Assembly: GCA_009927055.1 (NCBI GenBank)
Contig: RFNS01000061.1
Span: 1 to 55,102 of the forward strand
From: Alphaproteobacteria bacterium
GTDB taxonomy: Bacteria; Pseudomonadota; Alphaproteobacteria; UBA9219; RFNS01
DNA: 55,102 nt
Direction: 5' to 3'
The notes beneath the pieces were generated by a model. It worked only from the letters and a program-made list of their open reading frames with translations. It made no database searches and was not told the DNA's origin. Shown in pieces: positions 5,043 through 55,075 of this stretch. Both the position numbers and the translations under genes were made by a program. The first letter of the stretch is position 1. Each line of letters starts with the position of its first letter.

Positions 5043-5479
5043 TGCGCTCCTATCAAAAGGAAATCCTTTATTTCATCGTCATCGCGCTCGTGGGCTTTGG
5101 CGCTTTTTATGCCTGCGGTAATTTTTTTAAAGCGCCTCATCATGGCTCGGTCGATGCTCACGTCTGGCTACACGAGCAGATCGGCATTACAGCGGAGCAG
5201 GATCAAAAGCTCTCTGAAATCGAAAATAAATTTGCCGACAAGCAACGCGTGTTGCGTGAAAAAATCCATGTCGGCAACCTAGAGCTTGCAGCCGCCATGC
5301 TCGAAGATAAGGCGTTTTCCGAGCGTGTCGCTGCTGCAGTCGAGCGTATTCATCACGCTCAAGGGGAACTGCAAAAGGCGACGATTGAGCATATATTTGA
5401 CATGCAGACCATATTAACGCCGCAGCAAGCGGAAAAGCTCAATAAGTTAGCCGCAGATGCCCTTGTTCAGAACCCATAG
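5042..5479 (+). CDS. Periplasmic heavy-metal sensor (CnrX/NccX-like)
   Basis: N-terminal anchor, HxxxH (AHVWLH), HxxxM (EHIFDM), LTPQQ motif of the CpxP/ZraP/CnrX fold. Confidence 0.82.
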   Translation: MRSYQKEILYFIVIALVGFGAFYACGNFFKAPHHGSVDAHVWLHEQIGITAEQDQKLSEIENKFADKQRVLREKIHVGNLELAAAMLEDKAFSERVAAAVERIHHAQGELQKATIEHIFDMQTILTPQQAEKLNKLAADALVQNP

Positions 5480-6062
5480 AACCCCAAAAGAGAATACCGC
5501 CGATGAGGATTACGCGCTCGTCAAGCGATTGAGTTCTGGTGACGATTTTGCGCTCAACGAGATCATGCAACGCTATAAAGAGCGCGTCTATCGTCTGTCC
5601 TGGCGTTATGTGGGCAACGAAGAAGCGGCGCTCGACGTGACGCAGGAAACTTTCACGAAACTTTACTTTAATATCGAAAAATATGACCCAGCTTACAAAT
5701 TCAGCACCTGGGTCTTTCAGATCGCGGTCAATCTGTGCCGAGACCATCTTCGCAAAAACAAGAACCATGCCCGCAATGTTTCTTATGATGCGTTAAGCGA
5801 AAGCGGCTCCGGCGATTGGCAGCAGAGCGAAGAGAATATCGAGGCCAGCTTTCAATCGAAGCAGCAGCTTGCCCACTTACGGCAAGAGATCGAACGGTTG
5901 CCGGATACCCTTAAAGAAGCCTTTATTTTGTTCGCTCTTGAGGAGCGGACACAAAACGAATGCGCTGAAATCCTTAATGTTTCGGCCAAAACCGTGGAAA
6001 CCCGCGTCTATCGCGCGCGCAAGATTTTATCCGAAAAACTGCACTTTTATTCTGAGGGATAG
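5457..6062 (+). CDS. ECF sigma factor (CnrH/NccH-like)
   Basis: Region 2 (DVTQETF, FSTWVFQIAVNLCRD) and region 4 (ECAEILNVSAKTVETRVYRAR). Confidence 0.92.
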   Translation: MPLFRTHRTPKENTADEDYALVKRLSSGDDFALNEIMQRYKERVYRLSWRYVGNEEAALDVTQETFTKLYFNIEKYDPAYKFSTWVFQIAVNLCRDHLRKNKNHARNVSYDALSESGSGDWQQSEENIEASFQSKQQLAHLRQEIERLPDTLKEAFILFALEERTQNECAEILNVSAKTVETRVYRARKILSEKLHFYSEG

Positions 6063-34217: not shown

Positions 34218-34703
34218 CTAGTTAAGCGCGGCGTTTTTATTATATTTCCGCATAGATATTATTAAGAGGGCAACGCCCATAAAAATAGCACTGTCCGTGA
34301 CGTTAAACGCAGGCCAGTGATAACCGAGAGCATGGAAATCTAAGTAATCTGCTACTGCGCCATGCAAAACACGATCAATTACGTTGCCCACAGCCCCGCC
34401 AATAATCAAGCTATAAGCCGTTGCTTCAAAAGAACTGGTAGCCCGTAACAGCAAGTGTGTAAGAAATACGCTAATTCCCAATGCGAATATTGACAATATC
34501 CATTGGCCATAAGTGAGCTTGTTAAGCATGCCAAAACTAATGCCGTAATTCCATACTTCTACAAAATTAAAAAACGGCGTTATTGCAATAGATTTTCCCT
34601 CTTCTTGAAGTACGGAAAATACCCAAGCCTGAATTATTGTATCAAGCACAATTACAGCAAAAACAATAAGTATTCCGATCATTAAGTTTTTACGCAACTT
34701 CAT
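34218..34703 (-). CDS. lspA: Lipoprotein signal peptidase II
   Basis: WNYGISFG, GGAVGNVIDR, VADYLD, WPAFNVTDSAI. Confidence 0.92.
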   Translation of the reverse strand: MKLRKNLMIGILIVFAVIVLDTIIQAWVFSVLQEEGKSIAITPFFNFVEVWNYGISFGMLNKLTYGQWILSIFALGISVFLTHLLLRATSSFEATAYSLIIGGAVGNVIDRVLHGAVADYLDFHALGYHWPAFNVTDSAIFMGVALLIISMRKYNKNAALN

Positions 34704-35331
34704 TTTTTTTCTCTCTATGCGTGTTCAAATCTTTGCGTGCTGCACGAAGAATCTGCCATGCTCCGCTTAAAGCCAAATATCCTAAAATCGCTGCGACAAT
34801 GATGTCAGGCCAAGCGGTGGCGCTGGCAAATACCCCGCCAGCGGCAAAAATGACCGCAATATTGCCGATGGCATCATTCCGGCTGCATATCCACACGGAT
34901 TCCCGATTACTGTCGCCGCCGCGATGTCGATATAGCAGTACGGCACAACCGATATTTACAGCCAATCCAACAATGCTGATGACCGTCATAATTTCAGGCT
35001 TAGGCAATTCGGGCTGTAGGGCATGTTGCAAGGTTTCAAAGGCTACCCACAATCCGATTAAACCAAGGGAAACGCCTTTCAAATACGAGGCTTTTGCTCT
35101 GGCCTGTAAACTTTTCCCCAAAACAAAAAGACTGATAGCATAATTGGCTGCGTCGGAGAGGAAATCCAACGCATTTGCCAGCAACGACACCGATAGCGCT
35201 TCGTAACTTCCCATCGTCTGAACACCGAACATCACGGCGTTAGCGATCAAGCATACATAGAGAATACGTTTATACTTTTCGTCGATATGATTTTCATTCG
35301 ACGAACCGCAAGAATCTTTGCATCCGACCAT
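34690..35331 (-). CDS. Short CDF cation transporter (no C-terminal domain)
   Basis: SLLANALDFLSDA, SVWICSRNDAIGN, WPD; N-terminal CxxxC. Confidence 0.88.
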   Translation of the reverse strand: MVGCKDSCGSSNENHIDEKYKRILYVCLIANAVMFGVQTMGSYEALSVSLLANALDFLSDAANYAISLFVLGKSLQARAKASYLKGVSLGLIGLWVAFETLQHALQPELPKPEIMTVISIVGLAVNIGCAVLLYRHRGGDSNRESVWICSRNDAIGNIAVIFAAGGVFASATAWPDIIVAAILGYLALSGAWQILRAARKDLNTHREKKNEVA

Positions 35332-44941: not shown

Positions 44942-45808
44942 TTATTCTCCTTGCGTTTGTGGTGCGTTGATTTGTTGCGGATGGACGTAGGTCAGACGTT
45001 CGGCAGCGGGTTTGGCCGCTCCGGCAATCTTGTCCATCAACCGTCCTAGGTGCGGCTCTTCCAGAAGTTCGAGCCGACCGCTGCGATCCTTGGCGGGGAA
45101 GCTGTGGGGATTGAGCGTGTGGCAGATGAAGGCGCGATACGGCGTGCCGTCTTCGGTCTTCAACTCGGCCATGGTGATGACCTGATCAACGATGCCTGGA
45201 AGTTCGAGACCTGTTTTGCTGCCCTCGATTTGCGGCTGGAAGAAACGACGATTGAAATCGTCCAGCTTTTCGTCGAGAATCCCGACAAACCAGATGTTCT
45301 TGCCGCGTGCGTGCTGGAGATGCGTCAGCCACGCGATCATCTCCTGACCGTGAAGGCCGTAAGCACCGCGCGTATCTGGTTTGCCTGTCTTGTCGCTGAA
45401 CGCCTGCGGCTGGCCTTTGCACCACTGGAAGCACAGGCGTCCGGCCACGGTGATTGAATCCACAAAAACCGTGTCGTATTTTTCAAGAGTTGCAGGGTCG
45501 CCGAAGCGTTCGCGCACCGCGTCGTAATGCGCTTGGCTGTAAGGCTGGTCTTCGCGCAGGGCGGGATTAGGGCCGCCGATGAATACTGCAAAGTCACGGC
45601 AATCCTGCCAGGTACGCGGGCGAATGGTATCGCCCGCCCAGCCTTCAATGGCCAGATCGCCAGCTTCAAGGTCAAAGAACAAAGTATTTTCGGCGGGCAG
45701 CGTCCAGAGCAGCGATGTTTTGCCGATGCCGGACTTGCCGAAAATGCAGCCCTTGATGCCACGCTTTTCGGCAAGTCGCTCGTCTGCGGAGATGATGGGA
45801 AGCGTCAT
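44942..45808 (-). CDS. AAA_24 / Sak4-like ATPase
   Basis: GKSGIGKT, VFVDSIT, AKDRSG. Confidence 0.85.
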   Translation of the reverse strand: MTLPIISADERLAEKRGIKGCIFGKSGIGKTSLLWTLPAENTLFFDLEAGDLAIEGWAGDTIRPRTWQDCRDFAVFIGGPNPALREDQPYSQAHYDAVRERFGDPATLEKYDTVFVDSITVAGRLCFQWCKGQPQAFSDKTGKPDTRGAYGLHGQEMIAWLTHLQHARGKNIWFVGILDEKLDDFNRRFFQPQIEGSKTGLELPGIVDQVITMAELKTEDGTPYRAFICHTLNPHSFPAKDRSGRLELLEEPHLGRLMDKIAGAAKPAAERLTYVHPQQINAPQTQGE

Positions 45809-46098
45809 TACACGCCTCCCTTTTTGCCTGTGATGGCATCGACGATGTTATCGCTGCCAACTGCGCCCTTGGAACGCGCCTCACGGTAAAGACGGCGCAG
45901 CGCGTACAGGGTCGAGTTTAAAGCGTCGGCTTTTTGATCGATAGCCTGCGCCGCGAAAGCGATGTCATCGAGCGTCGCTTGTTCGATCGGCTTGGTAACG
46001 TCCGTCAGGTTTTCGCCGAGTGGCGGGATATGGATGCTCTCCGGCACGTTGTTTGCCAGATAGGTGTCCTTCAAAAGTTTTTCGATTTTCTTGCTCAT
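45808..46098 (-). CDS. Hypothetical phage protein
   Basis: Coupled to both neighbours; AGGAGG RBS. Confidence 0.65.
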   Translation of the reverse strand: MSKKIEKLLKDTYLANNVPESIHIPPLGENLTDVTKPIEQATLDDIAFAAQAIDQKADALNSTLYALRRLYREARSKGAVGSDNIVDAITGKKGGV

Positions 46099-46259
46099 TG
46101 TGCGCCTCCTTTTTTGGCTTTGAGTCTCAGTGCGCCGCGCAACCAGCGGCAGACCAGTTCGGCCTTTGCCAGCAGTCGGCGTAGTTCGGTTTCGTCCATC
46201 TCCAGCAATTGCCCGACGGGCGTGCCGTAGACGGCGTCTAGTGATTGTGAATCGCTCAT
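46095..46259 (-). CDS. Small hypothetical, first gene of replication operon
   Basis: AAGGAG RBS before ATG 46259; ATGA coupling downstream. Confidence 0.55.
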   Translation of the reverse strand: MSDSQSLDAVYGTPVGQLLEMDETELRRLLAKAELVCRWLRGALRLKAKKGGAQ

Positions 46260-46410
46260 TCGATGCTCCTTGGTTTCGTTATTGCTCCTGGTTGCCGTTT
46301 GCATTGCTGCTGTCGGGTCTTGGCGCCGCCAAAGAGCAAAAGCGGTCGCGGTATTTCCCCGAAAGGTTTTGCATTCCCGCGAAGGCCCGACATGAATTCC
46401 CTATGAGGGG

Positions 46411-46442
46411 TTACATACCGAGCGATCGCGGGAACTGTCGGG
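46411..46442 (-). promoter_or_regulatory. Putative phage-sigma promoter, copy A
   Basis: Minus strand CCCGACAGTTCCC-N8-TCGGTATGTAA; matches copy B at 49646-49677. Confidence 0.7.
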
Positions 46443-46447
46443 GTCGG

Positions 46448-47017
46448 TCAGTGCAGATATTTGTGGAGGCCGCGCTCATCAAAATCGCGCCGGATCCGCC
46501 CGATGGTTTCGTAAACCGTGGACGGATGTCGGTTGTGGATTTTGCAGAGCGTGCGGATGGGCAAGTCCTGCATCAGCATCGCGCAATAGAAGCGCGCGGC
46601 TTCCGGCAAGGCACGGATTGCATCCGTCAGGTCAATCGTCAGATCGACTTGGCGTGCATGATTTGGGTGCGCCCCCCAGATGGACATGGATTCCGGAATG
46701 TCGTCGCGATCGCCGTCTTCCAGGTACGAATCCAGCGATGCGGCATGGAAACCGCCATTGCGTTTTTCTGCCTTCGCCGCTTTGATCATCGCCGCGCATT
46801 TGTGGCGCAGGATGCGGTCGGTGAAGGTTTTGCGGCAGGATTTTTCTGGGTCGAAGGATTGGATGCGCGAGAGATAGTCGAGCATTAATTCCTGCTCGAT
46901 ATCCTCAATCTCCATTCCGGCCATGGTATGGTGCCGGAGCATTTGACGTGAATGGTAACGGACTTGTGAAACGACATACGGATCGATGCCGTCGTAACGG
47001 TTTTGGCTCTTGCTCAT
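46448..47017 (-). CDS. Phage sigma70/ECF-like factor
   Basis: EDIEQEL..FDPEKS..TFTDRI region 2; AIRALPE..STVYETIGRIR region 4. Confidence 0.75.
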   Translation of the reverse strand: MSKSQNRYDGIDPYVVSQVRYHSRQMLRHHTMAGMEIEDIEQELMLDYLSRIQSFDPEKSCRKTFTDRILRHKCAAMIKAAKAEKRNGGFHAASLDSYLEDGDRDDIPESMSIWGAHPNHARQVDLTIDLTDAIRALPEAARFYCAMLMQDLPIRTLCKIHNRHPSTVYETIGRIRRDFDERGLHKYLH

Positions 47018-47124
47018 TGTTTTCGCCTTTGTTTGCTTTGACGGCCACGCGGGCCGGACAAAGGGACTGGCGAAAACTCACTGGACGACTGGATTTGAGG
47101 TCTTTTCCAGACCGCCTAAAAAGC

Positions 47125-47149
47125 AAAAAGCCGCCTGTGCGGCGGCTTT
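47125..47149 (-). terminator. Intrinsic terminator between recombinase operon and sigma gene
   Basis: AAAGCCGCC-N5-GGCGGCTTT stem followed by a T-run on the minus strand. Confidence 0.6.
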
Positions 47150-47184
47150 AAGGGCGAAAATAATTTTGATTTTTTTTCAGGGTG

Positions 47185-47204
47185 TCCGGTGAATTTTCAC
47201 CGGA
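47185..47204. promoter_or_regulatory. Perfect 9-2-9 palindrome upstream of the sigma gene
   Basis: TCCGGTGAA-TT-TTCACCGGA. Confidence 0.55.
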
Positions 47205-47220
47205 GATAGTGGCGACCCTA

Positions 47221-47634
47221 TCAGGCGGTCAAGCCAAAGTGGCGGTTTTGGGCTTCCCAATCGTCAGGGAAAGGCTGGAGAAGCTCGGTTAATTTCATGC
47301 TCTTGGGCTGTGTGCCGTCTAAAATCATTTCCTTAATATTGGGCGCAAGAAGGTTCAGCCGGATGATGCGCGAAACGTAGGATGGGTTGATTTCATTTTC
47401 GACGGCCAGCTGATCGATATTTTTGACCTTGCCTGTTTCCAGCCATTGGCTCCATTTATGGGCGCGCGCCAGTGCTTTCAGCATTTTATCATCTTTGCGT
47501 GAGGGGTTGATGAAGGGGATCTCGCCCTCGGTCGGCGGCACGATCATATAACGCCGACCGAATTTTCTGGTGAAGTTCACGGGGATGCAGATATTGATGA
47601 TATTGCCGTCGAGAGAAATCATGGCCTTATTCAT
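47221..47634 (-). CDS. Recombinase-associated HTH protein
   Basis: KALARAHKW..SYVSRIIRLNLLAPNI..ILDG..PDDWEAQ; ATGA-coupled to the recombinase. Confidence 0.75.
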   Translation of the reverse strand: MNKAMISLDGNIINICIPVNFTRKFGRRYMIVPPTEGEIPFINPSRKDDKMLKALARAHKWSQWLETGKVKNIDQLAVENEINPSYVSRIIRLNLLAPNIKEMILDGTQPKSMKLTELLQPFPDDWEAQNRHFGLTA

Positions 47635-48977
47635 GCGGCCTCCTTATGTTGTTGAACATACTGAATATCGCGTACCAGACTGTTCAGACCTTCGGCGTGG
47701 ATACGAATATCGATGCGGTCGTTGTTGACGATGATTTTATCAATCAACAACTTTAAGAGCCGCGCTTGTTCAGTCGGAAACAATTCATCCCAAACAAGGT
47801 TTAGGTTTTGGAGTGACGATCGCACGTCCTGTTCTGATATTTTGTGGTCATCCTTGATGGCCTCGCGCCAGACCCGCACCATCATCTCTGGTGTGCAGAG
47901 CGCAAGACGCATTTGATTAAGGACAATGTTCTCTAGCTCTCCGGCGGGTACTGCGCCGATCGGGCAATCTTCGATCTCGTTCTTCAGATGGGCACTTGCT
48001 TTATAGTACCGATACAGCCTGCCGTTCGGCTTTTTTGAATGGGTCGGCGTAAGCACGGATTGACAACCGCCGCATACGGCCAGTCCCTGCAGCAACGCCG
48101 TCGAGAGACCGCGCGTTCGCACGGCACGTTTGCGTGGACTTTCTTTGAGAGTTGAATGCACTTTTTCCCAAAGTGCAAAGTCAATGATCGGCTGGTGCTG
48201 GCCTGGGTAGGTATTTCCCTTGTGATTGATTTCGCCAAGATAAGTGCGATTATAAAGAGCTTTGTAAAGAAAACCTTTGGTAATCGGACGTCCGCCGCGT
48301 TGTTTTCCATTTTTGCTGACCCAACTTTTCGTTCGATATCCTTGATCGCGCAGTTCCTTTGCCAGCAGTGTCATCGATTTCAGCATGACAAATCGTTCGA
48401 AAATCATTCGGACGAGCTGCGCTTCTTTTTCATCGATCACCAACTTTTTCTCTTTTGTATCGTACCCAAGCGGCTTGATCCCGCCGATCCACATGCCCTT
48501 GCGTTTTGTTGCAGCGATTTTGTCGCGGATACGTTCGCCAATCACTTCACGTTCGAATTGTGCGAAAGACAGCAGGATGTTGAGCGTGAGCCGTCCCATG
48601 GAGGTGGTGGTATTGAATTGCTGGGTAACAGAAACGAAGCTGACGTTGTGTTTGTCGAAAAGATCGATCAGCTTGGCAAAATCGGAGAGCGCGCGCGACA
48701 GGCGGTCAACTTTATAAACCACGACCACGTCGATTAGGCCGTTTTCAATGTCGCGTATAAGTTTTTTCAGCGCCGGACGATCCATGGATCCGCCTGAAAA
48801 GCCCCCATCGTCGTAGTATTCCGGCACCAACGTCCAGCCTTCGTGACGTTGCGCGTTGATATAGGATTCTCCGGCCTCGCGCTGTGCGTCGAGACTGTTG
48901 AATTCCATGTCGAGACCTTCCTCGGTGGATTTGCGCGTATAAATCGCACAGCGAATTCTTTTCTTTTGTTCTGTCAT
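47631..48977 (-). CDS. Large serine recombinase (prophage integrase)
   Basis: YTRKST, DDGGFSG, YKVDRLSR, FAQFERE, PLGY, CGGC zinc ribbon. Confidence 0.95.
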   Translation of the reverse strand: MTEQKKRIRCAIYTRKSTEEGLDMEFNSLDAQREAGESYINAQRHEGWTLVPEYYDDGGFSGGSMDRPALKKLIRDIENGLIDVVVVYKVDRLSRALSDFAKLIDLFDKHNVSFVSVTQQFNTTTSMGRLTLNILLSFAQFEREVIGERIRDKIAATKRKGMWIGGIKPLGYDTKEKKLVIDEKEAQLVRMIFERFVMLKSMTLLAKELRDQGYRTKSWVSKNGKQRGGRPITKGFLYKALYNRTYLGEINHKGNTYPGQHQPIIDFALWEKVHSTLKESPRKRAVRTRGLSTALLQGLAVCGGCQSVLTPTHSKKPNGRLYRYYKASAHLKNEIEDCPIGAVPAGELENIVLNQMRLALCTPEMMVRVWREAIKDDHKISEQDVRSSLQNLNLVWDELFPTEQARLLKLLIDKIIVNNDRIDIRIHAEGLNSLVRDIQYVQQHKEAA

Positions 48978-49432
48978 GCCTTGTCCTCTTTATTTCTTTT
49001 ATTGCGTATCAGGCCGAAGAAAACGGGGCCTGACCAACTCGTTCCTGTAATTTCGCGCGCGATTTGGGATAGGCTTTTGTAACGCATACCGTTGTATTCA
49101 AATCCGTGGTCAAGGACGGTCACGCGGTGTTCGATGCCGTGATGCACGCGCACGAGCTTTGTTCCTGCAACGGGCATGTGGATGCCTGTGCCGCGCGGCT
49201 TGCGTAAATTTTCCGAAAGACTCTCCTTCGCGTATTGCTCAAGTCGTTTTTCGATAATGCTGCTGTCCACGTTATGGGCGATTTCCTGCAGGCGATAAGC
49301 CAGCCGTTTGACCAAATAGGGCTTGTTGTATTTCGGCGGTTTGGCCTGAAAAAGCTCTTCCCACATGGCCGCCAGTTCACCCATAGGCATTTGCGGTAAG
49401 GCGGAAACTCTTGCTAAGACATTGTTTTGCAT
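48974..49432 (-). CDS. DUF2924 protein
   Basis: LAYRLQE, GTKLVR, YKSLSQIAREITGTSWSGPVFFGL. Confidence 0.88.
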   Translation of the reverse strand: MQNNVLARVSALPQMPMGELAAMWEELFQAKPPKYNKPYLVKRLAYRLQEIAHNVDSSIIEKRLEQYAKESLSENLRKPRGTGIHMPVAGTKLVRVHHGIEHRVTVLDHGFEYNGMRYKSLSQIAREITGTSWSGPVFFGLIRNKRNKEDKA

Positions 49433-49617
49433 TGACTATTTTCCTCTTTCTGGTTTTGTCCATGAATGCTTCCTGGCTCTCTGAAGTCCAGTGAATAGTC
49501 TCTCTTGTCAGCGGTTTTCAGCTTTTGCAGGCGACGGACGATGCCACGGCTAAGAATCAGGCCGACTTCACTCATACGCTCGTCTGCAGTCATCAGGTTT
49601 GGATCCAATCTATTCAT
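49414..49617 (-). CDS. Small hypothetical, first gene of recombinase operon
   Basis: GGAGG RBS; MTADERMSEVGLILSRGIVR. Confidence 0.6.
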   Translation of the reverse strand: MNRLDPNLMTADERMSEVGLILSRGIVRRLQKLKTADKRDYSLDFREPGSIHGQNQKEENSQCKTMS

Positions 49618-49645
49618 GTTCACCTCCGTACTGTTCCATGCGCTA

Positions 49646-49677
49646 TTACTTACCGAATGCGTAGGGGAAGTGTCGGG
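49646..49677 (-). promoter_or_regulatory. Putative phage-sigma promoter, copy B
   Basis: Minus strand CCCGACACTTCCC-N8-TCGGTAAGTAA. Confidence 0.7.
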
Positions 49678-49689
49678 ATAAGTACGGTA

Positions 49690-49740
49690 TTGACAGCGAA
49701 TTTTCTTGAAATAAGATAATCAAACCTAATAAATATAAGG
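49690..49740 (+). promoter_or_regulatory. Sigma70 promoter and candidate repressor operator of the LexA-like operon
   Basis: TTGACA-N16-TAAGAT (49690-49717); imperfect palindrome CCTAATAAATATAAGG (49725-49740). Confidence 0.55.
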
Positions 49741-49760
49741 CTCATCATAAGGAGATTCGC

Positions 49761-49943
49761 ATGGCAACAAATCCGCCAAAAGGCGATGGCCACCGCAACG
49801 GCGCGGTGCGTGATCGTTCTCAAGTTCTGAACACCAAAACGGGGCATTACACCAAACGCAACGATGACACAGGCCGTTTTATGGATGTGAAATCGGACGG
49901 CGGAAAATTCAAAGGCGTGAGAACCGAGAAGCCGAAAAAATGA
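49761..49943 (+). CDS. Small basic hypothetical protein
   Basis: AAGGAG RBS; ATGA-coupled to the repressor; GAVRDRSQ..TGRFMDVK. Confidence 0.75.
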   Translation: MATNPPKGDGHRNGAVRDRSQVLNTKTGHYTKRNDDTGRFMDVKSDGGKFKGVRTEKPKK

Positions 49944-50623
49944 GAGCGCTAAAAAAACTACCAAGCACCGGAAATCTGACACCCGCGCAAGAGACGATGT
50001 TGCGTACTATCAGCGCGTTCAAAGATCGGCGCGGTGTCGCTCCAACTGTGCAGGAACTTGCTGCCATTCTTTCGATCCAGCCGCCCAGCGCACACGAGCT
50101 GTTGGGGCGTTTGGAAGAAAAAGGATATATTCAGCGCGAACCGCGCAAGGCGCGCGCAATGACGGTCGTGAAAGATTTCATGCCGCGCACGCGTCAGATG
50201 GTCAATGTTCCGATCGTGGGTCGCGTTGCTGCGGGTGCGCCGATACTGGCCATCGAAAATAAAGTTGGTGAAATCATGGTCGATGCCATGATTGCGCGCG
50301 GTAATTGCTTCGCGCTTCAAGTGTGCGGCGATAGCATGATCGATGTGGATATTAATGACGGCGACTATGTTGTCGTGCGTCAACAACAGCTTGCCGAGTC
50401 TGGCGACATTGTCGTTGCCATGCGCGACGGGGAAGCGACCGTAAAGCGGTTGTTTATAGCAGATGAAAAAATCGAACTGAGGCCCGAAAACAAAAAACTG
50501 AAACCAATCATCATCAGCCATGACGATGACTTCTCAATTGTGGGAAGGGTCGTCAGCGTTTGTTCCAGAGCCGATCCTATCAATCAGGCAAAGGAGCAAC
50601 AGGATGGCGACATATTCCCTTAA
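49940..50623 (+). CDS. LexA-like self-cleaving repressor
   Basis: PTVQELA wHTH, GRVAAG cleavage site, GDSM (Ser), TVKR (Lys). Confidence 0.92.
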   Translation: MRALKKLPSTGNLTPAQETMLRTISAFKDRRGVAPTVQELAAILSIQPPSAHELLGRLEEKGYIQREPRKARAMTVVKDFMPRTRQMVNVPIVGRVAAGAPILAIENKVGEIMVDAMIARGNCFALQVCGDSMIDVDINDGDYVVVRQQQLAESGDIVVAMRDGEATVKRLFIADEKIELRPENKKLKPIIISHDDDFSIVGRVVSVCSRADPINQAKEQQDGDIFP

Positions 50624-51815
50624 TAAATTTGCACAACCGGATATTCTGAAGAAGATCAAGGATGAGAATCTTTTGCAATTTCTTTCCCCGTACACTTCTT
50701 ATTTGGAGGGGCGCGGGTTCAAGCCGAAAGTGAACGGCAGCGCACAAATCGATTACGATCTGCTCTGCCGGATTCTGATGCAGCCGACCGAGGGCATACC
50801 GCCAGACATGGTGGATGCCCTCTTTTTTGTTCATGAGGTTGCGGACGACGAAATGTACGACGAGTTGCTGGAGATGGCGAAGACCGGAAACGTCACCGTT
50901 CCTGCCGATTGCACACCCGCTGATCTCGCAGTGCTGTTGTGGCTGAAAGACCCAGAGTTGATCAAAAAATCACACGCCGAGGCACTGATGATGAAGCCGA
51001 AGAGCTTCAACAGCTTCCAGTCTGAAAAGGGTAAGGGTAAAAAGCCAAACCTTTCTAGCGGCAATGTTTCTCACCTCGAAAGCCTCATGGACGTGTGGTT
51101 CGAGCAGAATAAACGTGGCAAGGGCTGCAAGGTTTTGTCATTCGATATGGATTATGAGAATAAAGTGTATTTCCTCGTGCGCCACGGCATGCCGTTCAAG
51201 CGCGAAGGCAAAATCGAAGATGGCGAAACAGGCAGCGTGTTCTACCGTCCTGAATTTCACGATGTTGTCATTTACGACATTGATTCCAACGAGCTTCAAA
51301 TCTTTAACAAGTCTGGCGGCAAGAAAGAACGGGCGATGTATCTCTCGGCTTTCGGGCAGGTGTTTTTCAACGATACGGAATACTTCCCCAACGAGGACAA
51401 ATTTACCCTGCAGCCGCTGCTCGACGATGGGGTAAATTCCTTGAGCTGCCTCGACATCGACGGCCTTGCAGAGGTGCGTCTGACAGAGGTGCAGTTGTTG
51501 TTCCGTGGGCCGTACAATGACCGCACGATCTTGCGTTCCAAAGACATCTTCAAATCTTTGGAAGGTCGTAAGCGTAATTTCCCCGATTACGGAACTTTGG
51601 TCGCGGCCAGCTTTCAAGTTAAATTCGATAGCAGTTCAAAGCCGCGCACGGTGAAGATTAAGACCCCAAATATCGCCAGCTTCGATCGGAAAGAAGATGC
51701 ACATATCATTGAGCAATGGATGAAGGCGCGTGGCTTTATCAAGCCACAAGATGTGGTAACCGACGAAGATACTGATGAGGTGGTGACATATGTTGCAGAA
51801 GCAGCCGTGGCATAA
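50604..51815 (+). CDS. Hypothetical protein (403 aa)
   Basis: AAGGAG RBS, long ORF overlapping the repressor end; no recognised motif. Confidence 0.8.
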   Translation: MATYSLNKFAQPDILKKIKDENLLQFLSPYTSYLEGRGFKPKVNGSAQIDYDLLCRILMQPTEGIPPDMVDALFFVHEVADDEMYDELLEMAKTGNVTVPADCTPADLAVLLWLKDPELIKKSHAEALMMKPKSFNSFQSEKGKGKKPNLSSGNVSHLESLMDVWFEQNKRGKGCKVLSFDMDYENKVYFLVRHGMPFKREGKIEDGETGSVFYRPEFHDVVIYDIDSNELQIFNKSGGKKERAMYLSAFGQVFFNDTEYFPNEDKFTLQPLLDDGVNSLSCLDIDGLAEVRLTEVQLLFRGPYNDRTILRSKDIFKSLEGRKRNFPDYGTLVAASFQVKFDSSSKPRTVKIKTPNIASFDRKEDAHIIEQWMKARGFIKPQDVVTDEDTDEVVTYVAEAAVA

Positions 51816-52845
51816 GTTAAGCCAACTTCTCGGTGCGCGCGGCGTAAAGGCAGACTGGACGGGTTTCCCTGAAAATCTGCTAAAGCCCACGAACGAGCTT
51901 GCTGAAACATTTCCATGCGCAGGCAGATGTGGTGGATACATGGATGTGATAAAGCACAACGATGGCCAGCATATTGGTGTGTGTGCCTCTGGCTGCGATA
52001 AGCGGTCGTTGCAAATGAAAGATCTGATCATTCACTACCCCGACACCACGGCTATTTTTTCCGGCCTTGGGCAGGCATTCGGTATCAGTGCAACAAGCCA
52101 CGCAATCATCGACGGCATTCCAGCGTGTTGGCAGATCGGGGATTACAATCCTTCCGCCAGCTATCGATTTCCTGTGGCAACTTTGTTTGACGCGCAGGCA
52201 AGCAGAATTGAGCGCGCGATCGGTCAGCTCGCCGCTAGGTACAAAAACCCTTTCTTTTTTCTTTTGCCGTCCGCGTCCGCCGTAACGCAATCTGTCCAAG
52301 ATGTCGCTCTTCGAAATGGGTGCAAAGTGTTCGCCTACGAAGACCTGATTGAATTTACCAATAATTCTATTCACGTCAGGGGAATGGCCGCCAATATGCT
52401 GGCCGAAATTTCTGCTGGTTGGATCAAGCACATTGACGGTGCGCCTGGAGAAACGCGTTACCCGACGCCCGCAGGCGCGAAGTGGGAAGATTTTGTTCTG
52501 GAATTTACCGCCGACGAGATGATCACCGTTTCCTGCAAGGGCCAAGGCCACAAGCAGTTCAGCGCCGAAGACCTCCAAATGCGTGACAAGCGTACCAAGA
52601 AACCCAAAAAGGCATGGACGTTCCTGCAGGCCATGGCGGCGGCGAACGGCAATATGTCGGTCAGCGATATCGACAAGGTCAAAAAGACCAAGCAGGAAGT
52701 TTCAGCCAATCTCCAGCGCGTGTTCCAGATTCCCGATGACGACCCGATTGAGTGGTCAGGCGAGGACACAGCCTACAAAGCCAAATTCATCGTGCGTGGC
52801 GGGGAGAAATTGACCCTGTCGAACGCGCGCAAGCGGACGGCTTAG
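51790..52845 (+). CDS. Hypothetical protein with Cys cluster and probable C-terminal DNA-binding domain
   Basis: CAGRC..CASGC; basic helical C-terminal ~110 aa; GAGG RBS. Confidence 0.75.
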   Translation: MLQKQPWHKLSQLLGARGVKADWTGFPENLLKPTNELAETFPCAGRCGGYMDVIKHNDGQHIGVCASGCDKRSLQMKDLIIHYPDTTAIFSGLGQAFGISATSHAIIDGIPACWQIGDYNPSASYRFPVATLFDAQASRIERAIGQLAARYKNPFFFLLPSASAVTQSVQDVALRNGCKVFAYEDLIEFTNNSIHVRGMAANMLAEISAGWIKHIDGAPGETRYPTPAGAKWEDFVLEFTADEMITVSCKGQGHKQFSAEDLQMRDKRTKKPKKAWTFLQAMAAANGNMSVSDIDKVKKTKQEVSANLQRVFQIPDDDPIEWSGEDTAYKAKFIVRGGEKLTLSNARKRTA

Positions 52846-53039
52846 GCTGCTTTGTCAGCCTGCACGGCCAAACCGATCACATGGTGAACTAGGAATGCGT
52901 CGATCAACGACAGGGCGTAGCCCTTGCTGATCGGCAGCATATCTTCCGTCAGCATGGTATCGACGTATTCCGCCGCATTCCAAAGTTTGCGGGTCTGCTC
53001 CGGATTGTTCGGATCGCCGCCGTTTAATTCGCGGAATAC
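52842..53039 (-). pseudogene. Start-less 3' gene remnant
   Basis: VFRELNGGDPNNPEQTRKLWNAAEYVDTMLTEDMLPISKGYALSLIDAFLVHHVIGLAVQADKAA* begins in frame right after the TAG of the MerT-like gene. Confidence 0.5.
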
Positions 53040-53402
53040 CTATACAAAAAAACGATGTGCATTGGCAGCAAAAAATCCGATGCACCATACTACAACTGCA
53101 AGCCAGTAAAAACGACGATTCCACCTATCCGCCTTTTTACACGCTTGTGCAAGAACAGGATCAGCAGGGCAAATTCTGCCTGAACGGTAGAGCATCCATC
53201 CTGCAAACAACAAAATGGCCGCCGTAACGCCGAATGTGATTTCTTCATTACGTCCGAACCATTGTAGAAAAGAAAGTTTCTCTCCGTACAAGCTGGCAAC
53301 TACTGATCCCATACCAAGATTTACCAACACTATAGGTAACGCGCAACAGAGCAAGGTTGGAGTGGAAGCAAAAAGCAGCCAGAATCCCCATCGTTTTGGC
53401 AT
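53040..53402 (-). CDS. MerT-like three-TM metal transport protein
   Basis: TLLCCALP Cys pair in TM1; CPADP..AC loop. Confidence 0.72.
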   Translation of the reverse strand: MPKRWGFWLLFASTPTLLCCALPIVLVNLGMGSVVASLYGEKLSFLQWFGRNEEITFGVTAAILLFAGWMLYRSGRICPADPVLAQACKKADRWNRRFYWLAVVVWCIGFFAANAHRFFV

Positions 53403-53412
53403 GTTGGTTTTA

Positions 53413-53622
53413 TTAGTCACAGCAGCCCCCTTTTTGTTGTTGGATCGACGGACAAGGCACATCACCATAGGAGCAATAGACACAGCAGTCGCCATGCTTC
53501 GGCCTCAATACCTCTCCGCAGAAACTGCATTCGTAAAAATACTGGCAGGCATCAGTCGGCATGGTTTCCGTTTTTTCGCTGCCGCATTTTGGGCAGGTGA
53601 TGCTGGATTCAGGCGTAAACAT
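53413..53622 (-). CDS. GDCCVxC-domain protein
   Basis: ITCPKCG..MPTDACQYFYEC..C..GDCCVYCSYGDVPCP. Confidence 0.88.
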   Translation of the reverse strand: MFTPESSITCPKCGSEKTETMPTDACQYFYECSFCGEVLRPKHGDCCVYCSYGDVPCPSIQQQKGGCCD

Positions 53623-53918
53623 TAACAGCCCTCGCGCTTGGTCACGCCCTTAAAGGTGAATCCGCGCTCGGCGAACATGACTTTTAATTGTTCGTCGTCT
53701 AGCTTCACACGCTCATCGGCGCACAGGCTAATCTTCCCTGCGTCAATATCCGTCTTCACTGAGGACACACCTTCAATAGCTTTCAGGTTTTTTTCGGCAC
53801 TACCAACGCATGAGAGGCAGGTAATGCCGCCGATGCTTAAGTCATAACCAATGTTAGCCGCTAGTGTGGGTGATACGATAAATATTGAGAGGGCGATTGT
53901 TAGCAAGGTTCGTTTCAT
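53622..53918 (-). CDS. Periplasmic HMA-domain protein (MerP/CopZ-like)
   Basis: Signal peptide; GITCLSC. Confidence 0.82.
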   Translation of the reverse strand: MKRTLLTIALSIFIVSPTLAANIGYDLSIGGITCLSCVGSAEKNLKAIEGVSSVKTDIDAGKISLCADERVKLDDEQLKVMFAERGFTFKGVTKREGC

Positions 53919-54325
53919 GATGGTTCTCCGTAAAAATATTCAAGGATGCTGCATTCCTTCAGGCGCGTGCCTTTGCCCTTGCAGGCGGAGGCCAGTTTCT
54001 CAAGGCCACGCTTCATGGTTTGCAGATCATCCATGCGTTGCTGAATCTGAAGTATTTTATCCTGAACACGTTGCTTTACATCGGCGCAATCTGCTTCTTG
54101 CGTGTGATGCAACTCAAGCAATTCCTTGATTTCTTCAAGTGTCAAGCCAAGGCTTTGTGCCCTACGCACGAACTTTAGCTTCTTAATGCTGCTTGGGTCG
54201 TACACACGGTAGCCAGAGGCAGTGCGGTCAAGCGGCATGAGCAACCCCATGCGTTCGTAATAGCGAACGGTGTCGATATTCACATCGCAAGACTTTGCCA
54301 GTTTACCAATGGTTAGCGTACTCAT
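53915..54325 (-). CDS. MerR-family metal-responsive regulator
   Basis: TIGKLAK..DTVRYYER..GYRVY; three Cys (ADC, SAC, ECSIL) as in divalent-metal sensors. Confidence 0.92.
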   Translation of the reverse strand: MSTLTIGKLAKSCDVNIDTVRYYERMGLLMPLDRTASGYRVYDPSSIKKLKFVRRAQSLGLTLEEIKELLELHHTQEADCADVKQRVQDKILQIQQRMDDLQTMKRGLEKLASACKGKGTRLKECSILEYFYGEPS

Positions 54326-54343
54326 AATCAACTCCATAATCTC

Positions 54344-54374
54344 ATTATAATCCTTGAGTATAGTCTAGAGTCAA
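54344..54374 (-). promoter_or_regulatory. MerR-type promoter with 19-bp spacer
   Basis: TTGACT-N19-TATAAT with dyad CTAGACTATACTCAAG in the spacer. Confidence 0.88.
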
Positions 54375-54407
54375 GAGTTTTTTATTAACTAAAACCAGGA
54401 GAAACCG

Positions 54408-54632
54408 ATGATCGATGCCGCCGAACGACTGTTGCTGCTGTATATCGGCCTGATCGCGCCGACCACCAGCTATACGCCGCCCAGCGTAGCAAATTTCGAG
54501 TCGGCACAAAGCAGCGTCAGCGTGAAGGTGCGGCTTCAGATGATCGAGAAAGGAAGTAAAGCCTATGGCTCGGATCGCCGTAATGGCAACAGGTTAACTC
54601 TGGTAGGGCAAAGCATGAAAAACCAATGTTGA
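54408..54632 (+). CDS. Possible small hypothetical or gene fragment
   Basis: AGGAG RBS, divergent from merR; no motif. Confidence 0.3.
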   Translation: MIDAAERLLLLYIGLIAPTTSYTPPSVANFESAQSSVSVKVRLQMIEKGSKAYGSDRRNGNRLTLVGQSMKNQC

Positions 54633-54807
54633 GTAAACCCTTGAAACCTATTGACCGAAACCTGTGAACATGGTGGCAATCAGTACGGAGGTTTCTGAGA
54701 GAAAAGGCCCGTAGAGAGAGAAATGAGCCGGATTTTCACCGCCACGGCCAAAACCATGTCAGGAGGTTTTCGCGGAACACGTTGCAGGAGTTGGAGTTTT
54801 TCCGGCG

Positions 54808-54837
54808 ACCCCTATACCGGTATAGGGGTGTTTTTTT
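54808..54837. terminator. 22-bp perfect palindrome plus T-tract next to tRNA 3' end
   Basis: ACCCCTATACCGGTATAGGGGT (54808-54829) then GTTTTTTT on the plus strand. Confidence 0.55.
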
Positions 54838-54843
54838 AGAAAA

Positions 54844-54937
54844 TGGCGGAGACGGAGGGATTCGAACCCTCGATACGCCTTTACAAGCGTATAACGGTTT
54901 AGCAAACCGCCGCCTTCAGCCACTCGGCCACGTCTCC
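54844..54937 (-). tRNA. tRNA-Ser(GCT)
   Basis: GGAGACG/CGTCTCC acceptor stem, anticodon loop TTGCTAA, long variable arm, GTTCGAATC, encoded CCA. Confidence 0.96.
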
Positions 54938-55075
54938 ACGCTATTATCTCAACCACGCGAAGGCGAGTGGCTGAGGGATTTTCACGCTTCCTGGGCCACT
55001 TGGGGTGTTGGGGTGCGCGGTTCCTGGAAGGATATAGCACGACCGCAGGGCCGCACAAAACTTATTTGTCAACAT

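Follow-up and report, generated by a model that had tools for sequence, protein, structure and literature searches.

A prophage control region in which DNA signals join a LexA-type repressor, a conserved protein pair and a phage sigma factor

How might a prophage that carries its own LexA-type repressor pass a DNA-damage signal on to the genes for excision and replication? The question is raised by the right arm of a prophage in the window analyzed here (the whole 55,102-nt stretch of an alphaproteobacterial contig), an integrated-phage control region in which a LexA-type repressor, a pair of proteins that we call A and B, and a phage sigma factor are joined by DNA signals. Comparison showed that these signals are also found in phages across many bacterial phyla. 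The host genome encodes RecA. The prophage ends at a tRNA-Ser (gct) gene (54844..54937, minus strand), around which the homology of relatives picks up again (~54585-54940), and it carries a cargo insert of MerT-like, HMA and MerR genes (52850..54590, minus strand; Pfam and comparison with relatives) that is missing in seven close relatives (L001, L003-L007 and L010). Our leading interpretation, to which we assign a probability of roughly 45%, is that a temperate phage lineage uses this region as its early control module, which senses DNA damage and acts in three steps from LexA through A and B to sigma. Every feature that a sequence-only reading of this DNA had described was found in its place and is conserved, with two corrections to the sigma control region that are given below.

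The proposed plus-strand operon of a small ORF, a LexA-like gene, A and B was borne out, coordinates included, as was the sigma70 promoter with a palindrome ahead of it. The promoter, TTGACA-16-TAAGAT (49690..49717, plus strand), is kept in 10 of 10 close sequences and is followed by an operator-like imperfect CCT-N10-AGG palindrome, CCTAATAAATATAAGG (49725..49740), which sequence comparison assigns to the family CCTNAT-N4-ATNAGG. This is the sole match within the window, and the palindrome is likewise kept in all 10 aligned close sequences; the version in L003 is a perfect 7-2-7 palindrome, and in distant relatives CCTGAT-N4-ATCAGG is placed between TTGACC and TATAAT. The first gene of the operon encodes a 60-aa accessory protein (49761..49943, plus strand; PADLOC PDC-S38, 8.5e-32; phrog_12550) restricted to the closest relatives (8 of 80 loci). 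The second encodes a phage-borne LexA of 227 aa (49940..50623, plus strand) that is recognized by Pfam (Peptidase_S24, 5.4e-33; LexA_DNA_bind, 3.9e-13) and by NCBIfam (lexA, 178.4 bits against a cut-off of 110.95), and the VAAG, GDSM and VKRL stretches are intact in its translation. By the lexA score and the conserved palindrome, the repressor that had been described as LexA-like is a complete LexA with a putative operator at its own promoter. In the first step of the scheme, which sequence and comparison support well, the self-cleaving phage LexA would keep the small gene, lexA, A and B down by acting on the palindrome, and RecA-stimulated cleavage of LexA would release the operon.

Relatives without a phage LexA also bear on this step. 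An exact GAAC-N7-GAAC box, which is the Caulobacter SOS box as given in Table 1 of PMC9578287, lies ahead of A in four LexA-less Hyphomicrobiales loci (L023, L024, L026 and L028), where the repeats are constant and the spacers differ. The frequency of the box is low (34 per 1,192,148 nt); in L023, L024 and L026 the copy before A is the only one in the locus, and the box is absent from the 11 listed alphaproteobacterial loci with a phage lexA. Two LexA-less viral loci (L132 and L156) have a Peptidase_M78 gene directly 5' of A. Counting against our preferred interpretation, LexA is an immediate neighbor of A in just 27 of 75 viral loci. The completeness of LexA, the conservation of the operator and the SOS boxes in LexA-less relatives favor the proposal that the repressor controls A and B, and we regard such control as well supported, though predicted from DNA and protein sequence. 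Other LexA-controlled prophage effectors are known, such as coliphage 186 tum and the Gifsy antirepressors, which are small antirepressors. The host box before a phage effector gene in the four loci resembles that arrangement, in which the effector triggers induction. Here, however, two conserved, paired proteins of 400 and 350 residues would take the place of the small effector, and many of these phages bring their own LexA.

The genes for A (403 aa; 50604..51815, plus strand) and B (351 aa; 51790..52845, plus strand) overlap. B adjoins A in 75 of 80 genome loci; for viral loci the count is 61 of the 70 that extend far enough downstream. Among 150 listed relatives of B are two natural fusions of A with B. 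A sigma gene is present in 57 of 80 genome loci. Among the 80 viral loci 65 have one, which in 49 of them is co-directional with and downstream of B. As one block, the LexA-A-B unit changes its position and orientation with respect to the replication genes. A and B thus emerge from the neighborhood survey as a fixed pair tied to sigma and recombinase modules; since they are so linked, the objection that homologs of the pair might lie apart from such modules falls away. The sequence-only reading had also offered a defense role as an alternative, which finds little support, as A and B have no PADLOC match and, kept across phyla, belong to the lineage's core and not to its variable genes.

What A might do is suggested mainly by its predicted structure. 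Its start at 50604 matches the N-termini of 23 homologs. The protein has no match in the Pfam, NCBIfam, PHROG or PADLOC families, no relevant Pfam family, RdgC included, is matched by any of 24 members (0/24), and no relative was found among 50,697 phage records, phage WO included. The model (pLDDT 82.3) has a helical N-terminal part followed by an RdgC/CENP-N-type fold spanning residues ~127-386, with Z scores of 9.0-9.2 against RdgC (9.2 over 223 of 306 residues of the full-length protein) and 10.2-10.6 against CENP-N, further matches to CENP-L and Iml3, and low TM-scores against RdgC-type proteins (0.3-0.4). In BFVD it matches phage proteins (E 3e-5 to 1e-3) that carry the names exonuclease or recombination-associated protein RdgC. 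Many charged residues are invariant in A. The nearest folds (RdgC, CENP-N/L and YejK) are described in PMC11077077 as binding DNA without sequence preference and as non-activators. Judged from the model, A is not activator-like, and its RdgC/RexA-type fold would suit a lambda cI-rexA-type arrangement just as well. In the second step of the scheme, A would bind DNA as a member of the RdgC/CENP-N fold class.

The lambda parallel opens a different interpretation, which we consider unlikely: A and B would be made in the lysogen together with the repressor and would exclude other phages or tune the switch as RexA and RexB do, sigma being controlled by another factor or by read-through and not turned on by A and B. 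Lambda cI-rexA-rexB has the same gene order: behind the gene for an S24 repressor, and within its operon, come one for an RdgC-fold DNA-binding protein and then one more gene. As rexAB illustrates, genes cotranscribed with a repressor can be lysogen functions. RexA is described in PMC11077077 as having the RdgC/IML3/CHL4 fold, binding DNA non-specifically and biasing the lysis-lysogeny switch, and the folds matched by A are of this kind; moreover, the operon stands at the prophage end beside the cargo slot, and its 60-aa first gene matches a PADLOC defense candidate. Nevertheless, profile similarity between A and RexA is nil (hhalign probability 0.3%), B models as a soluble DNA-binding type and not as a RexB-like membrane protein, and the core status of A and B and their lack of a PADLOC match speak against this role as well. 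The operon has an autorepressed promoter of LexA type, unlike the activated PRM type of lambda, and a LexA-type operator on the promoter, together with the host SOS boxes, predicts damage induction, not steady expression in the lysogen.

Resemblance to RdgC itself would allow a feedback role, in which A is an RdgC-like RecA antagonist that damps or times repressor cleavage after the operon has been derepressed, and B is a sigma repressor that sets immunity. E. coli RdgC lowers RecA-dependent LexA cleavage, according to PMC11077077, and A, encoded immediately behind lexA, aligns with full-length RdgC; two palindromes around the sigma start region (see below) would suit a repressor. We find this rather improbable. 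The likeness to E. coli RdgC and to the phage proteins of that name is one of fold, with none of the 24 A members showing the corresponding sequence similarity, and A keeps many charged residues invariant and begins with an additional helical domain (~125 residues) that is absent in RdgC. Furthermore, were B a repressor of sigma, the damage that derepresses the operon would make repression tighter.

Protein B, too, has no match in the Pfam, NCBIfam, PHROG or PADLOC families, while its profile is matched by 5966 cluster representatives. The Cys cluster and probable DNA-binding end that had been noted in it can now be specified: a conserved C43/H56/C65 cluster is followed in the structure model (pLDDT 88.5) by an alpha/beta domain and a transcription-factor-like winged helix. 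This C-terminal domain aligns to OmpR/PhoB winged helices with Z 5.5-6.3, values around 6 being middling by the tool's own rating, and Pfam Trans_reg_C is matched by none of 31 B members. For the middle domain, the structural matches include PD-(D/E)xK nuclease domains (Cdn1, Z 8.3; Can2, Z 8.0). These matches, the RdgC and exonuclease names among the BFVD matches of A, and the Sak4-like annealing protein, helicase and Cas4-type exonuclease encoded nearby would fit A and B being damage-induced DNA-transaction proteins, such as helpers in excision or recombination-dependent replication, linked to sigma only by shared descent within a single phage lineage. We think this quite doubtful: an invariant Asp, Glu or Lys is absent from the nuclease-like domain across the B alignment, the domain fits receiver domains about equally well, and the LexA-A-B block moves and inverts with respect to the replication genes. 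Under the three-step interpretation, B would instead be transcription-factor-like and act paired with A, sequence recognition coming most likely from B.

The pair's proposed target is the control region of sigma. The perfect 9-2-9 palindrome reported upstream of the sigma-like gene is present (O1, TCCGGTGAATTTTCACCGGA; 47185..47204), ~170 nt upstream of the sigma start; the window contains it just once, and shuffles average 0.01 matches. The two corrections concern what follows it, a terminator between palindrome and sigma and a second palindrome copy. On the minus strand, O1 is succeeded by a conserved A-rich tract (47150..47184), which also follows the palindrome in distant phyla, by an intrinsic terminator (47127..47149; a 9-pair stem, then a T run) whose stem is preserved with different sequence in L004 and L005, and by a block (47042..47084) containing the degenerate palindrome O2 and a small hairpin, almost invariant in 9 of 9 close sequences. 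The O2 core (47070-47081) lies ~50 nt 5' of the sigma start and is matched with 2 mismatches; clear second copies stand 48-49 nt before sigma in L015 and L019. This layout, two palindromes ~120 bp apart with a terminator between them, recurs across phyla and stays in LexA-less phages.

The 80 loci contain 47 copies of the palindrome core, GYGAAWWTTCRC, compared with 0-2 per shuffle; of the 57 loci with sigma, 37 have the core no more than 900 nt ahead of that gene. Its strict pattern is found in 13 LexA-less loci, and variant copies were seen by eye in L023, L024 and L028; because it is kept where LexA is lacking, the phage LexA is not its binder. B identity between groups is only ~24% while the core is nearly constant, and the same palindrome is common to loci with differing B C-terminal sequences, so B and the site do not have the look of co-evolution. 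The terminator means that O1 could belong to an upstream transcript, and since sigma in most relatives lies on the same strand downstream of B behind a terminator, read-through or antitermination and classical activation are equally likely. We infer that A and B would target this region and turn sigma on by activation or antitermination.

The 189-aa phage sigma (46448..47017, minus strand; phrog_1740, 1.7e-12) is ECF-like and falls under the cut-offs of Sigma70_r2 (21.9 bits; cut-off 24) and TIGR02937 (37.6 bits; cut-off 42.9). A single bipartite motif had been noted ahead of both the recombinase and the replication operons, and CCCGACASTTCCC-N8-TCGGTAWGTAA indeed has exactly two copies in the window, both on the minus strand and with an ECF-promoter type of layout. 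One promoter-like copy, CCCGACAGTTCCC-N8-TCGGTATGTAA (46411..46442), heads the replication operon, beginning a few bases past the sigma stop. The other (49646..49677) stands 22 nt ahead of the ORF that opens the recombinase operon (69 aa; 49414..49623; relatives in 20 of 80 loci). This operon continues on the minus strand with a DUF2924 protein (48974..49432; PF11149, 1.3e-44), a large serine recombinase or integrase (47631..48977; Resolvase, 1.1e-38; Recombinase, 3.8e-12; Zn_ribbon_recom, 1e-10; phrog_95, 3.2e-113) and a 137-aa accessory protein (47221..47634; phrog_14161, 1.3e-33) whose relative in L080 matches HTH_ParB. With a relaxed form of the motif, the 80 loci yielded 35 matches, whereas none of 20 shuffles yielded any. 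All but two of these (33) sit just past sigma or ahead of the recombinase operon: 18 are 10-15 nt after sigma, 6 are 22-24 nt before the first recombinase-operon ORF and 9 are 457-508 nt before DUF2924, on the strand of the flanking set gene wherever one was identified. These positions favor the earlier idea of a tier leading from sigma to excision and replication. That the ECF-like sigma would read both operons from the bipartite motif, which behaves as its promoter, is a well-supported prediction for the third step.

In SXT/R391 elements, the self-cleaving S24 repressor SetR senses RecA activity, and its loss frees a two-protein regulator, SetCD, whose FlhDC-type subunits turn on integration/excision and later genes. 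The scheme proposed here likewise passes from an S24 repressor sensing RecA to a two-protein regulator, but A and B match no such family, repressor and pair share one operon, and the phage sigma is an extra tier. Late transcription in T4 uses the sigma gp55 with the co-activator gp33 and the sliding clamp gp45; a phage sigma working with a DNA-encircling protein would be an analogy only, a ring form of A being hypothetical. The only sigma relatives among the phage records searched are those of Wolbachia phage WO (4 records, 25-27% identity). Phage WO differs in having no relative of A in that search, and by eye no GYGAAWWTTCRC palindrome was seen in the 400 nt before its sigma. Its sigma gene is nevertheless followed, as here, by AAA_24-type replication genes, and GAACTTT lies a few bases past the sigma stop.

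The right half of the window is a prophage. Leftward from ~49.6 kb, its minus strand carries a 69-aa ORF, a DUF2924 gene, a large serine recombinase gene and a 137-aa accessory gene, then a sigma-like gene (46448-47017), the replication and recombination genes (Sak4-like AAA_24, helicase, Cas4-type exonuclease, primase/helicase and RuvC-like resolvase) and, beyond these, tail and lysis genes. Divergent from the recombinase operon, a plus-strand operon encodes a 60-aa protein (49761-49943), a LexA-like protein (49940-50623) and two large proteins that we call A (50604-51815, 403 aa) and B (51790-52845, 351 aa). The Resolvase (1.1e-38), Recombinase (3.8e-12) and zinc-ribbon (1e-10) domains of the recombinase identify it as a large serine recombinase. 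Homology with seven close relatives (loci L001, L003-L007 and L010) ended at ~52,810, right behind B, and returned at 54,585-54,940, where a tRNA-Ser(gct) gene is located. This break and return place the LexA-A-B operon at the right end of the prophage, and a cargo insert of MerR/HMA/MerT-like genes separates B from the tRNA. Genes for signal peptidase II and cation efflux among the tail genes (34218-35331; low G+C of 0.45) look like a second one. No head or packaging genes were seen in the whole window; they may lie past the contig end.

The first gene of the plus-strand operon, encoding the 60-aa protein, matched the PADLOC defence candidate PDC-S38 (8.5e-32) and phrog_12550. It is rare (8 of 80 genome loci and 2 of 80 viral loci) and is missing from loci L008 and L009; we conclude that it is an accessory gene inserted between the promoter and lexA.

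The gene described from the sequence alone as a LexA-like repressor proved to encode a full LexA. The protein scored 178.4 bits against the NCBIfam lexA model TIGR00498 (curated cut-off, 110.95) and contains both a LexA_DNA_bind domain (3.9e-13, residues 12-73) and a Peptidase_S24 domain (5.4e-33, residues 91-205), and its closest solved structures are LexA proteins (best, 3k2z, 7.7e-28). Its translation includes VAAG, GDSM and VKRL, which align with LexA 3k2z and which we take, by the catalytic residues of E. coli LexA, to be the Ala-Gly cleavage site and the Ser/Lys catalytic pair. The promoter with a palindrome that had been noticed in front of this operon is likewise present: TTGACA-16-TAAGAT and the operator-like palindrome CCTAATAAATATAAGG (49725-49740) were kept in all 10 close sequences, and the palindrome has a single match within the window. 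In distant relatives, TTGACC, a CCTGAT-N4-ATCAGG palindrome and TATAAT precede the LexA gene in that order. Comparison of close and distant LexA promoters thus defines the operator family as CCTNAT-N4-ATNAGG over a sigma70-type promoter, this predicted LexA operator adjoining or falling inside the promoter in both sets of relatives.

Some relatives of the A-B pair have no phage lexA. In four such Hyphomicrobiales loci (L023, L024, L026 and L028), an exact GAAC-N7-GAAC, the Caulobacter SOS box (Table 1, PMC9578287), stands ~160-180 nt before A, between A and a divergent copy of the bipartite promoter-like motif discussed below; the repeats are constant and the spacers vary. The 1,192,148 nt of loci contain 34 copies of this sequence, and in L023, L024 and L026 the copy before A is the only one. 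It was absent from 11 alphaproteobacterial loci with a phage lexA and from the Bartonella loci L016 and L019, and locus L018 has one copy at another place. In two LexA-less viral loci, a Peptidase_M78 (IrrE/ImmA-type) gene lies ahead of A; in some others, small unknown ORFs alone precede it. Comparison of these upstream regions gives good support to the view that A and B would come under LexA-type control in two ways, through the phage LexA or, in LexA-less loci, through a host-type SOS box. RecA is present in the host genome (573.5 bits), and no SOS box of either type was found upstream of the host recA. In the 97.3%-complete assembly (315 contigs), the phage LexA was the only LexA match; LexA was found in 30 of the 31 genomes searched (the source genome and 30 relatives), and the host's own lexA may be unassembled or lost.

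The lineage is widespread. Relatives of A are encoded in 181 stretches of species-representative genomes, whose record titles name more than 10 phyla, and in 80 IMG/VR viral contigs; going by those titles, isolates with the module are Aquibium sp. ELW1220, Syntrophus buswellii DM-2, Desulfatitalea alkaliphila M08but and Desulfosarcina cetonica JCM 12296. A profile search with B returned 5966 representatives of 50%-identity clusters (4320 at 1e-10 and 812 at 1e-30). No A relative was found by tblastn in 50,697 phage records or 72,556 plasmids. We surveyed the gene neighbourhood in the best 80 of the 181 genome stretches (tblastn, E up to 1e-4). B was found next to A in 75 of the 80, the serine recombinase in 65, DUF2924 in 63, LexA in 62, sigma in 57 and the 137-aa gene in 41, the misses including truncation because several loci are cut by contig ends. 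The pair is therefore linked to sigma and recombinase modules, a linkage whose absence would have counted against the cascade from LexA through two unknown proteins to sigma that was proposed from the sequence alone. In distant phyla, the genes usually run DUF2924, recombinase, LexA, A, B, sigma and replication on one strand (e.g., loci L050 and L059); the group to which the window belongs has the LexA-A-B block inverted as a whole. Among the viral contigs, A was followed by B in 61 of the 70 loci with room downstream and was adjoined by LexA in 27 of 75, and sigma was present in 65 of 80, co-directional downstream of B in 49 and, as in the window, upstream on the opposite strand in 16. We found no published description of the LexA-A-B-sigma module in the searchable literature outside subscription journals.

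Genes A and B overlap by 26 nt in the window and by 9-32 nt in most relatives with a placeable B start. Two of the 150 B relatives listed from an exhaustive B profile search are A-B fusions of 736 and 731 residues, which a frameshift error could also yield since the genes overlap; in each, a region related to A (30% and 24% identical to it, E 1e-60 and 5e-45) precedes the B part. Longer, fused forms of A did not turn up in a word-index search, which is weak evidence, and the predicted A + B complex scored 0.01 against a mark of 0.32, a result uninformative either way.

Neither A nor B matched Pfam, PHROGs, NCBIfam or PADLOC, and no PADLOC 2.0 family was found for either at E up to 1. None of 24 A relatives or 31 B relatives matched Pfam, and profile searches of solved-structure sequences returned nothing for A, B or their relatives. 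At E up to 1e-3, there were 261 A relatives among 3692 candidates, and wherever a source names one of them, the name is "hypothetical protein". The structural model of A (pLDDT 82.3) resembled CENP-N/Chl4 (Z 10.2-10.6; Foldseek E 1e-5 for CENP-N) and full-length RdgC (2owy_A, Z 9.2 over 223/306 residues with an rmsd of 5.3; 2owl_B, Z 9.0; Foldseek E 5.4e-4), followed by CENP-L (Z 8.0-8.1), Iml3 (Z 6.9-7.2) and YejK (Z 6.9). In a viral structure library, it matched phage proteins named RdgC or exonuclease. Judged by its model, A is predicted to share the fold of the RdgC monomer; none of the 24 aligned A relatives matched the RdgC Pfam model (PF04381) at E up to 1.

The main rival explanation likens A and B to lambda cI-rexA. 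RexA is encoded directly behind cI, and the A gene likewise follows an S24 repressor gene immediately within one operon; Adams et al. (PMC11077077) assign lambda RexA to an RdgC-type fold class. RexA showed no profile similarity to A (hhalign probability, 0.3%) and was not among the listed fold matches of A, an absence that does not imply exclusion. The second protein differs as well: lambda RexB is a small four-helix inner-membrane protein, whereas B is instead modelled as mixed beta/alpha globular domains with a winged helix. Neither A nor B matched any model of known anti-phage defence systems in PADLOC 2.0, only the 60-aa gene matching a candidate. Next after the cI-rexA parallel, we place an RdgC-type anti-RecA feedback by A, an analogy that draws on the predicted fold and on the reduction of RecA-dependent LexA cleavage by RdgC described in the same paper (PMC11077077). 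We prefer to view A and B as partners in transcriptional control, a reading in which B would supply the DNA recognition.

The B model had a pLDDT of 88.5. A Cys cluster had been noticed by eye in one of the two unknown ORFs, and B indeed has a conserved C43/H56/C65 cluster. Its middle alpha/beta domain (residues 85-219) resembled the nuclease domains of Cdn1 (Z 8.3), VC1899 (Z 8.1) and Can2 (Z 8.0) and, at Z ~6, receiver domains. We did not find PD-(D/E)xK catalytic residues there: the invariant columns of the 31-member B alignment hold no Asp, Glu or Lys in this domain. Residues 234-339 resembled the winged helices of BaeR (Z 6.3), AdeR (6.2), VanR (5.8), CadC (5.7) and CosR (5.6); the range against OmpR/PhoB winged helices, 5.5-6.3, is middling, and the domain calls for B are accordingly tentative. 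None of the 31 aligned B sequences matched Pfam Trans_reg_C, and Foldseek comparison of B with the PDB gave nothing below 1e-3; one Atlas cluster near B, with Trans_reg_C in 10% of members (score 0.88), is a lead only. No Pfam match to the FlhC or FlhD families was obtained for A, B, the 24 A relatives or the 31 B relatives, and the pair differs from SetCD/FlhDC-type activators in lacking a sequence match to FlhC or FlhD. In some B relatives (P0218 and P0274), the first 230-250 B residues are joined to ~480-500 unrelated residues that have no Pfam match and replace the winged helix; the DNA-binding end of B seems to be exchangeable.

The sigma-like protein scored 21.9 bits against Sigma70_r2 (cut-off, 24) and 37.6 bits against TIGR02937 (cut-off, 42.9), and matched phrog_1740 at 1.7e-12. 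A single bipartite motif had been reported in front of both the recombinase and the replication operons; we recovered it at these two places (49646-49677 and 46411-46442, both minus strand) and nowhere else in the window. Across the 80 loci, the relaxed pattern GAC[AG][CG][TA]T[CT][CG]-N10-13-[CG]GTA[ATG]GTA matched 35 times, as against no match in any of 20 shuffles. Eighteen of the 35 lie 10-15 nt after the sigma gene, six are 22-24 nt ahead of the first ORF in the recombinase operon, nine lie 457-508 nt before DUF2924 and two lie elsewhere. Wherever a gene of the set was identified, the motif was on the strand of that flanking gene. Two blocks at fixed spacing are typical of ECF promoters. 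The fixed block spacing with a CGTA/GGTA second block, the position near the start codon and the persistence across host phyla all argue for a promoter that would be read by the phage ECF-like sigma. In Wolbachia phage WO (L165, 5489-5560), GAACTTT occurs within a few bases after the sigma gene, at the same place as the bipartite motif, with AAA_24-type replication genes next; the layout of sigma followed by promoter may predate this lineage.

Nine close sequences share one order towards sigma: the stop of the 137-aa gene, a perfect 9-2-9 palindrome (O1, 47185-47204), a conserved A-rich tract, a terminator (47127-47149, minus strand), a block containing a degenerate second copy of the palindrome (O2, core 47070-47081), and the sigma start. 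The terminator stem is maintained by different sequence in L004 and L005, and the O2 block, which also holds a small hairpin, is nearly invariant. Centre to centre, O1 and O2 are separated by 119 bp in the window, 120-122 bp in L019 and L015, and 132 bp in L063 and L066. The O1 core, GYGAAWWTTCRC, has 47 copies in the 80 loci compared to 0-2 per shuffle, and 37 of the 57 sigma loci have it no more than 900 nt upstream of sigma. In the alphaproteobacterial group, the core is mostly 166-183 nt away from sigma; in distant phyla, the distance is mostly 788-798 nt, the core being directly behind the B stop and a 110-aa ORF intervening. Variant palindromes were recognised by eye where the strict pattern missed (L011, L023, L024, L027 and L028), and the strict core was found in LexA-less loci (3 genome and 10 viral). 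Since the core persists in LexA-less loci, the phage LexA is not its binder, and since the element travels with sigma and not with whichever gene is upstream, we read the O1/O2 region as the likely control region of sigma itself. B, as the only conserved protein with a transcription-factor-like domain, tentatively called, is a candidate binder of the palindrome. However, the B sequence varies far more than the palindrome, one palindrome being common to loci with different B C-terminal sequences.

Other roles for O1 were considered and rejected. A phage LexA operator should not be kept in LexA-less loci, and the LexA promoter bears a different palindrome; an attP is inconsistent with an O1 that is intact inside integrated prophages of complete chromosomes (e.g., L014); and a terminator does not fit, as neither strand shows a T run behind the palindrome. 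A third, half-matching copy in the LexA promoter spacer (49696-49707, two mismatches) was not above chance (shuffle mean, 36 per window).

Rfam gave nothing at gathering scores across 45800-53300. A weak isrK match on the minus strand from palindrome to terminator (47124-47204; 22.3 bits, gathering score 50, E 0.16) is a lead only; isrK is a short RNA transcribed from a prophage, and the terminator at which it ends precedes an antiterminator gene. In distant loci, a perfect hairpin (CCTCCTCGG-CC-CCGAGGAGG; 11017-11041 in L050, and the same place in ~25 loci) stops 2-3 nt short of the sigma start codon. Since this hairpin would sequester the GGAGG ribosome-binding site, sigma may be under translational control in these loci.

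Comparison across loci gives good support to the outer tiers of the proposed cascade, in which LexA would control A and B and sigma would control the recombinase and replication operons. For the middle tier, action of A and B on sigma, we offer a reasonable inference and nothing more, drawn from the presence of just one LexA operator in the window, the constant linkage of LexA, A, B and sigma, the A-B fusions and the putative DNA-binding end of B. Given that a terminator separates O1 from sigma and that the co-directional order is common, antitermination or read-through must be taken seriously as an alternative to classical activation at sigma. Our fullest reading, to which we give roughly one chance in four, is that A and B form an undescribed two-protein transcription switch, A as a DNA-encircling, RdgC-like component and B as its site-recognising winged-helix partner, and that cleavage of phage or host LexA leads to activation or antitermination at the conserved two-site sigma leader, a design that would be common to temperate phages of more than 10 phyla.

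SOS-triggered prophage induction is usually put down to lambda-type repressors or LexA-controlled antirepressors. This lineage would be different in that it has its own true LexA or borrows that of the host, sets two large uncharacterised proteins directly under it, and would route lytic development via the phage's own sigma. If the two-protein switch is real, it would provide the first function for a protein family with ~6000 cluster representatives, and if the middle step holds, a function for two unannotated families and a defined regulatory role for the RdgC/RexA fold. The conserved cis signals (operator, two palindromes around a terminator, and sigma promoters) suffice for designing reporter and binding tests. 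Four wastewater runs labelled RNA-Seq yielded only scattered short contigs for this stretch, probably DNA.

A separate island (856-25688) carries a serine recombinase of its own (856-2517) together with two ParB-like genes. A clear ECF sigma (5457-6062) is also encoded there, with a Metal_resist protein, a set for CusCBA-type RND efflux, a YHS protein, a CsoR-type repressor and a heavy-metal P-type ATPase as its neighbours. Genes for a Fic protein, SNF2 and ResIII helicases and a DNA methylase come further along.
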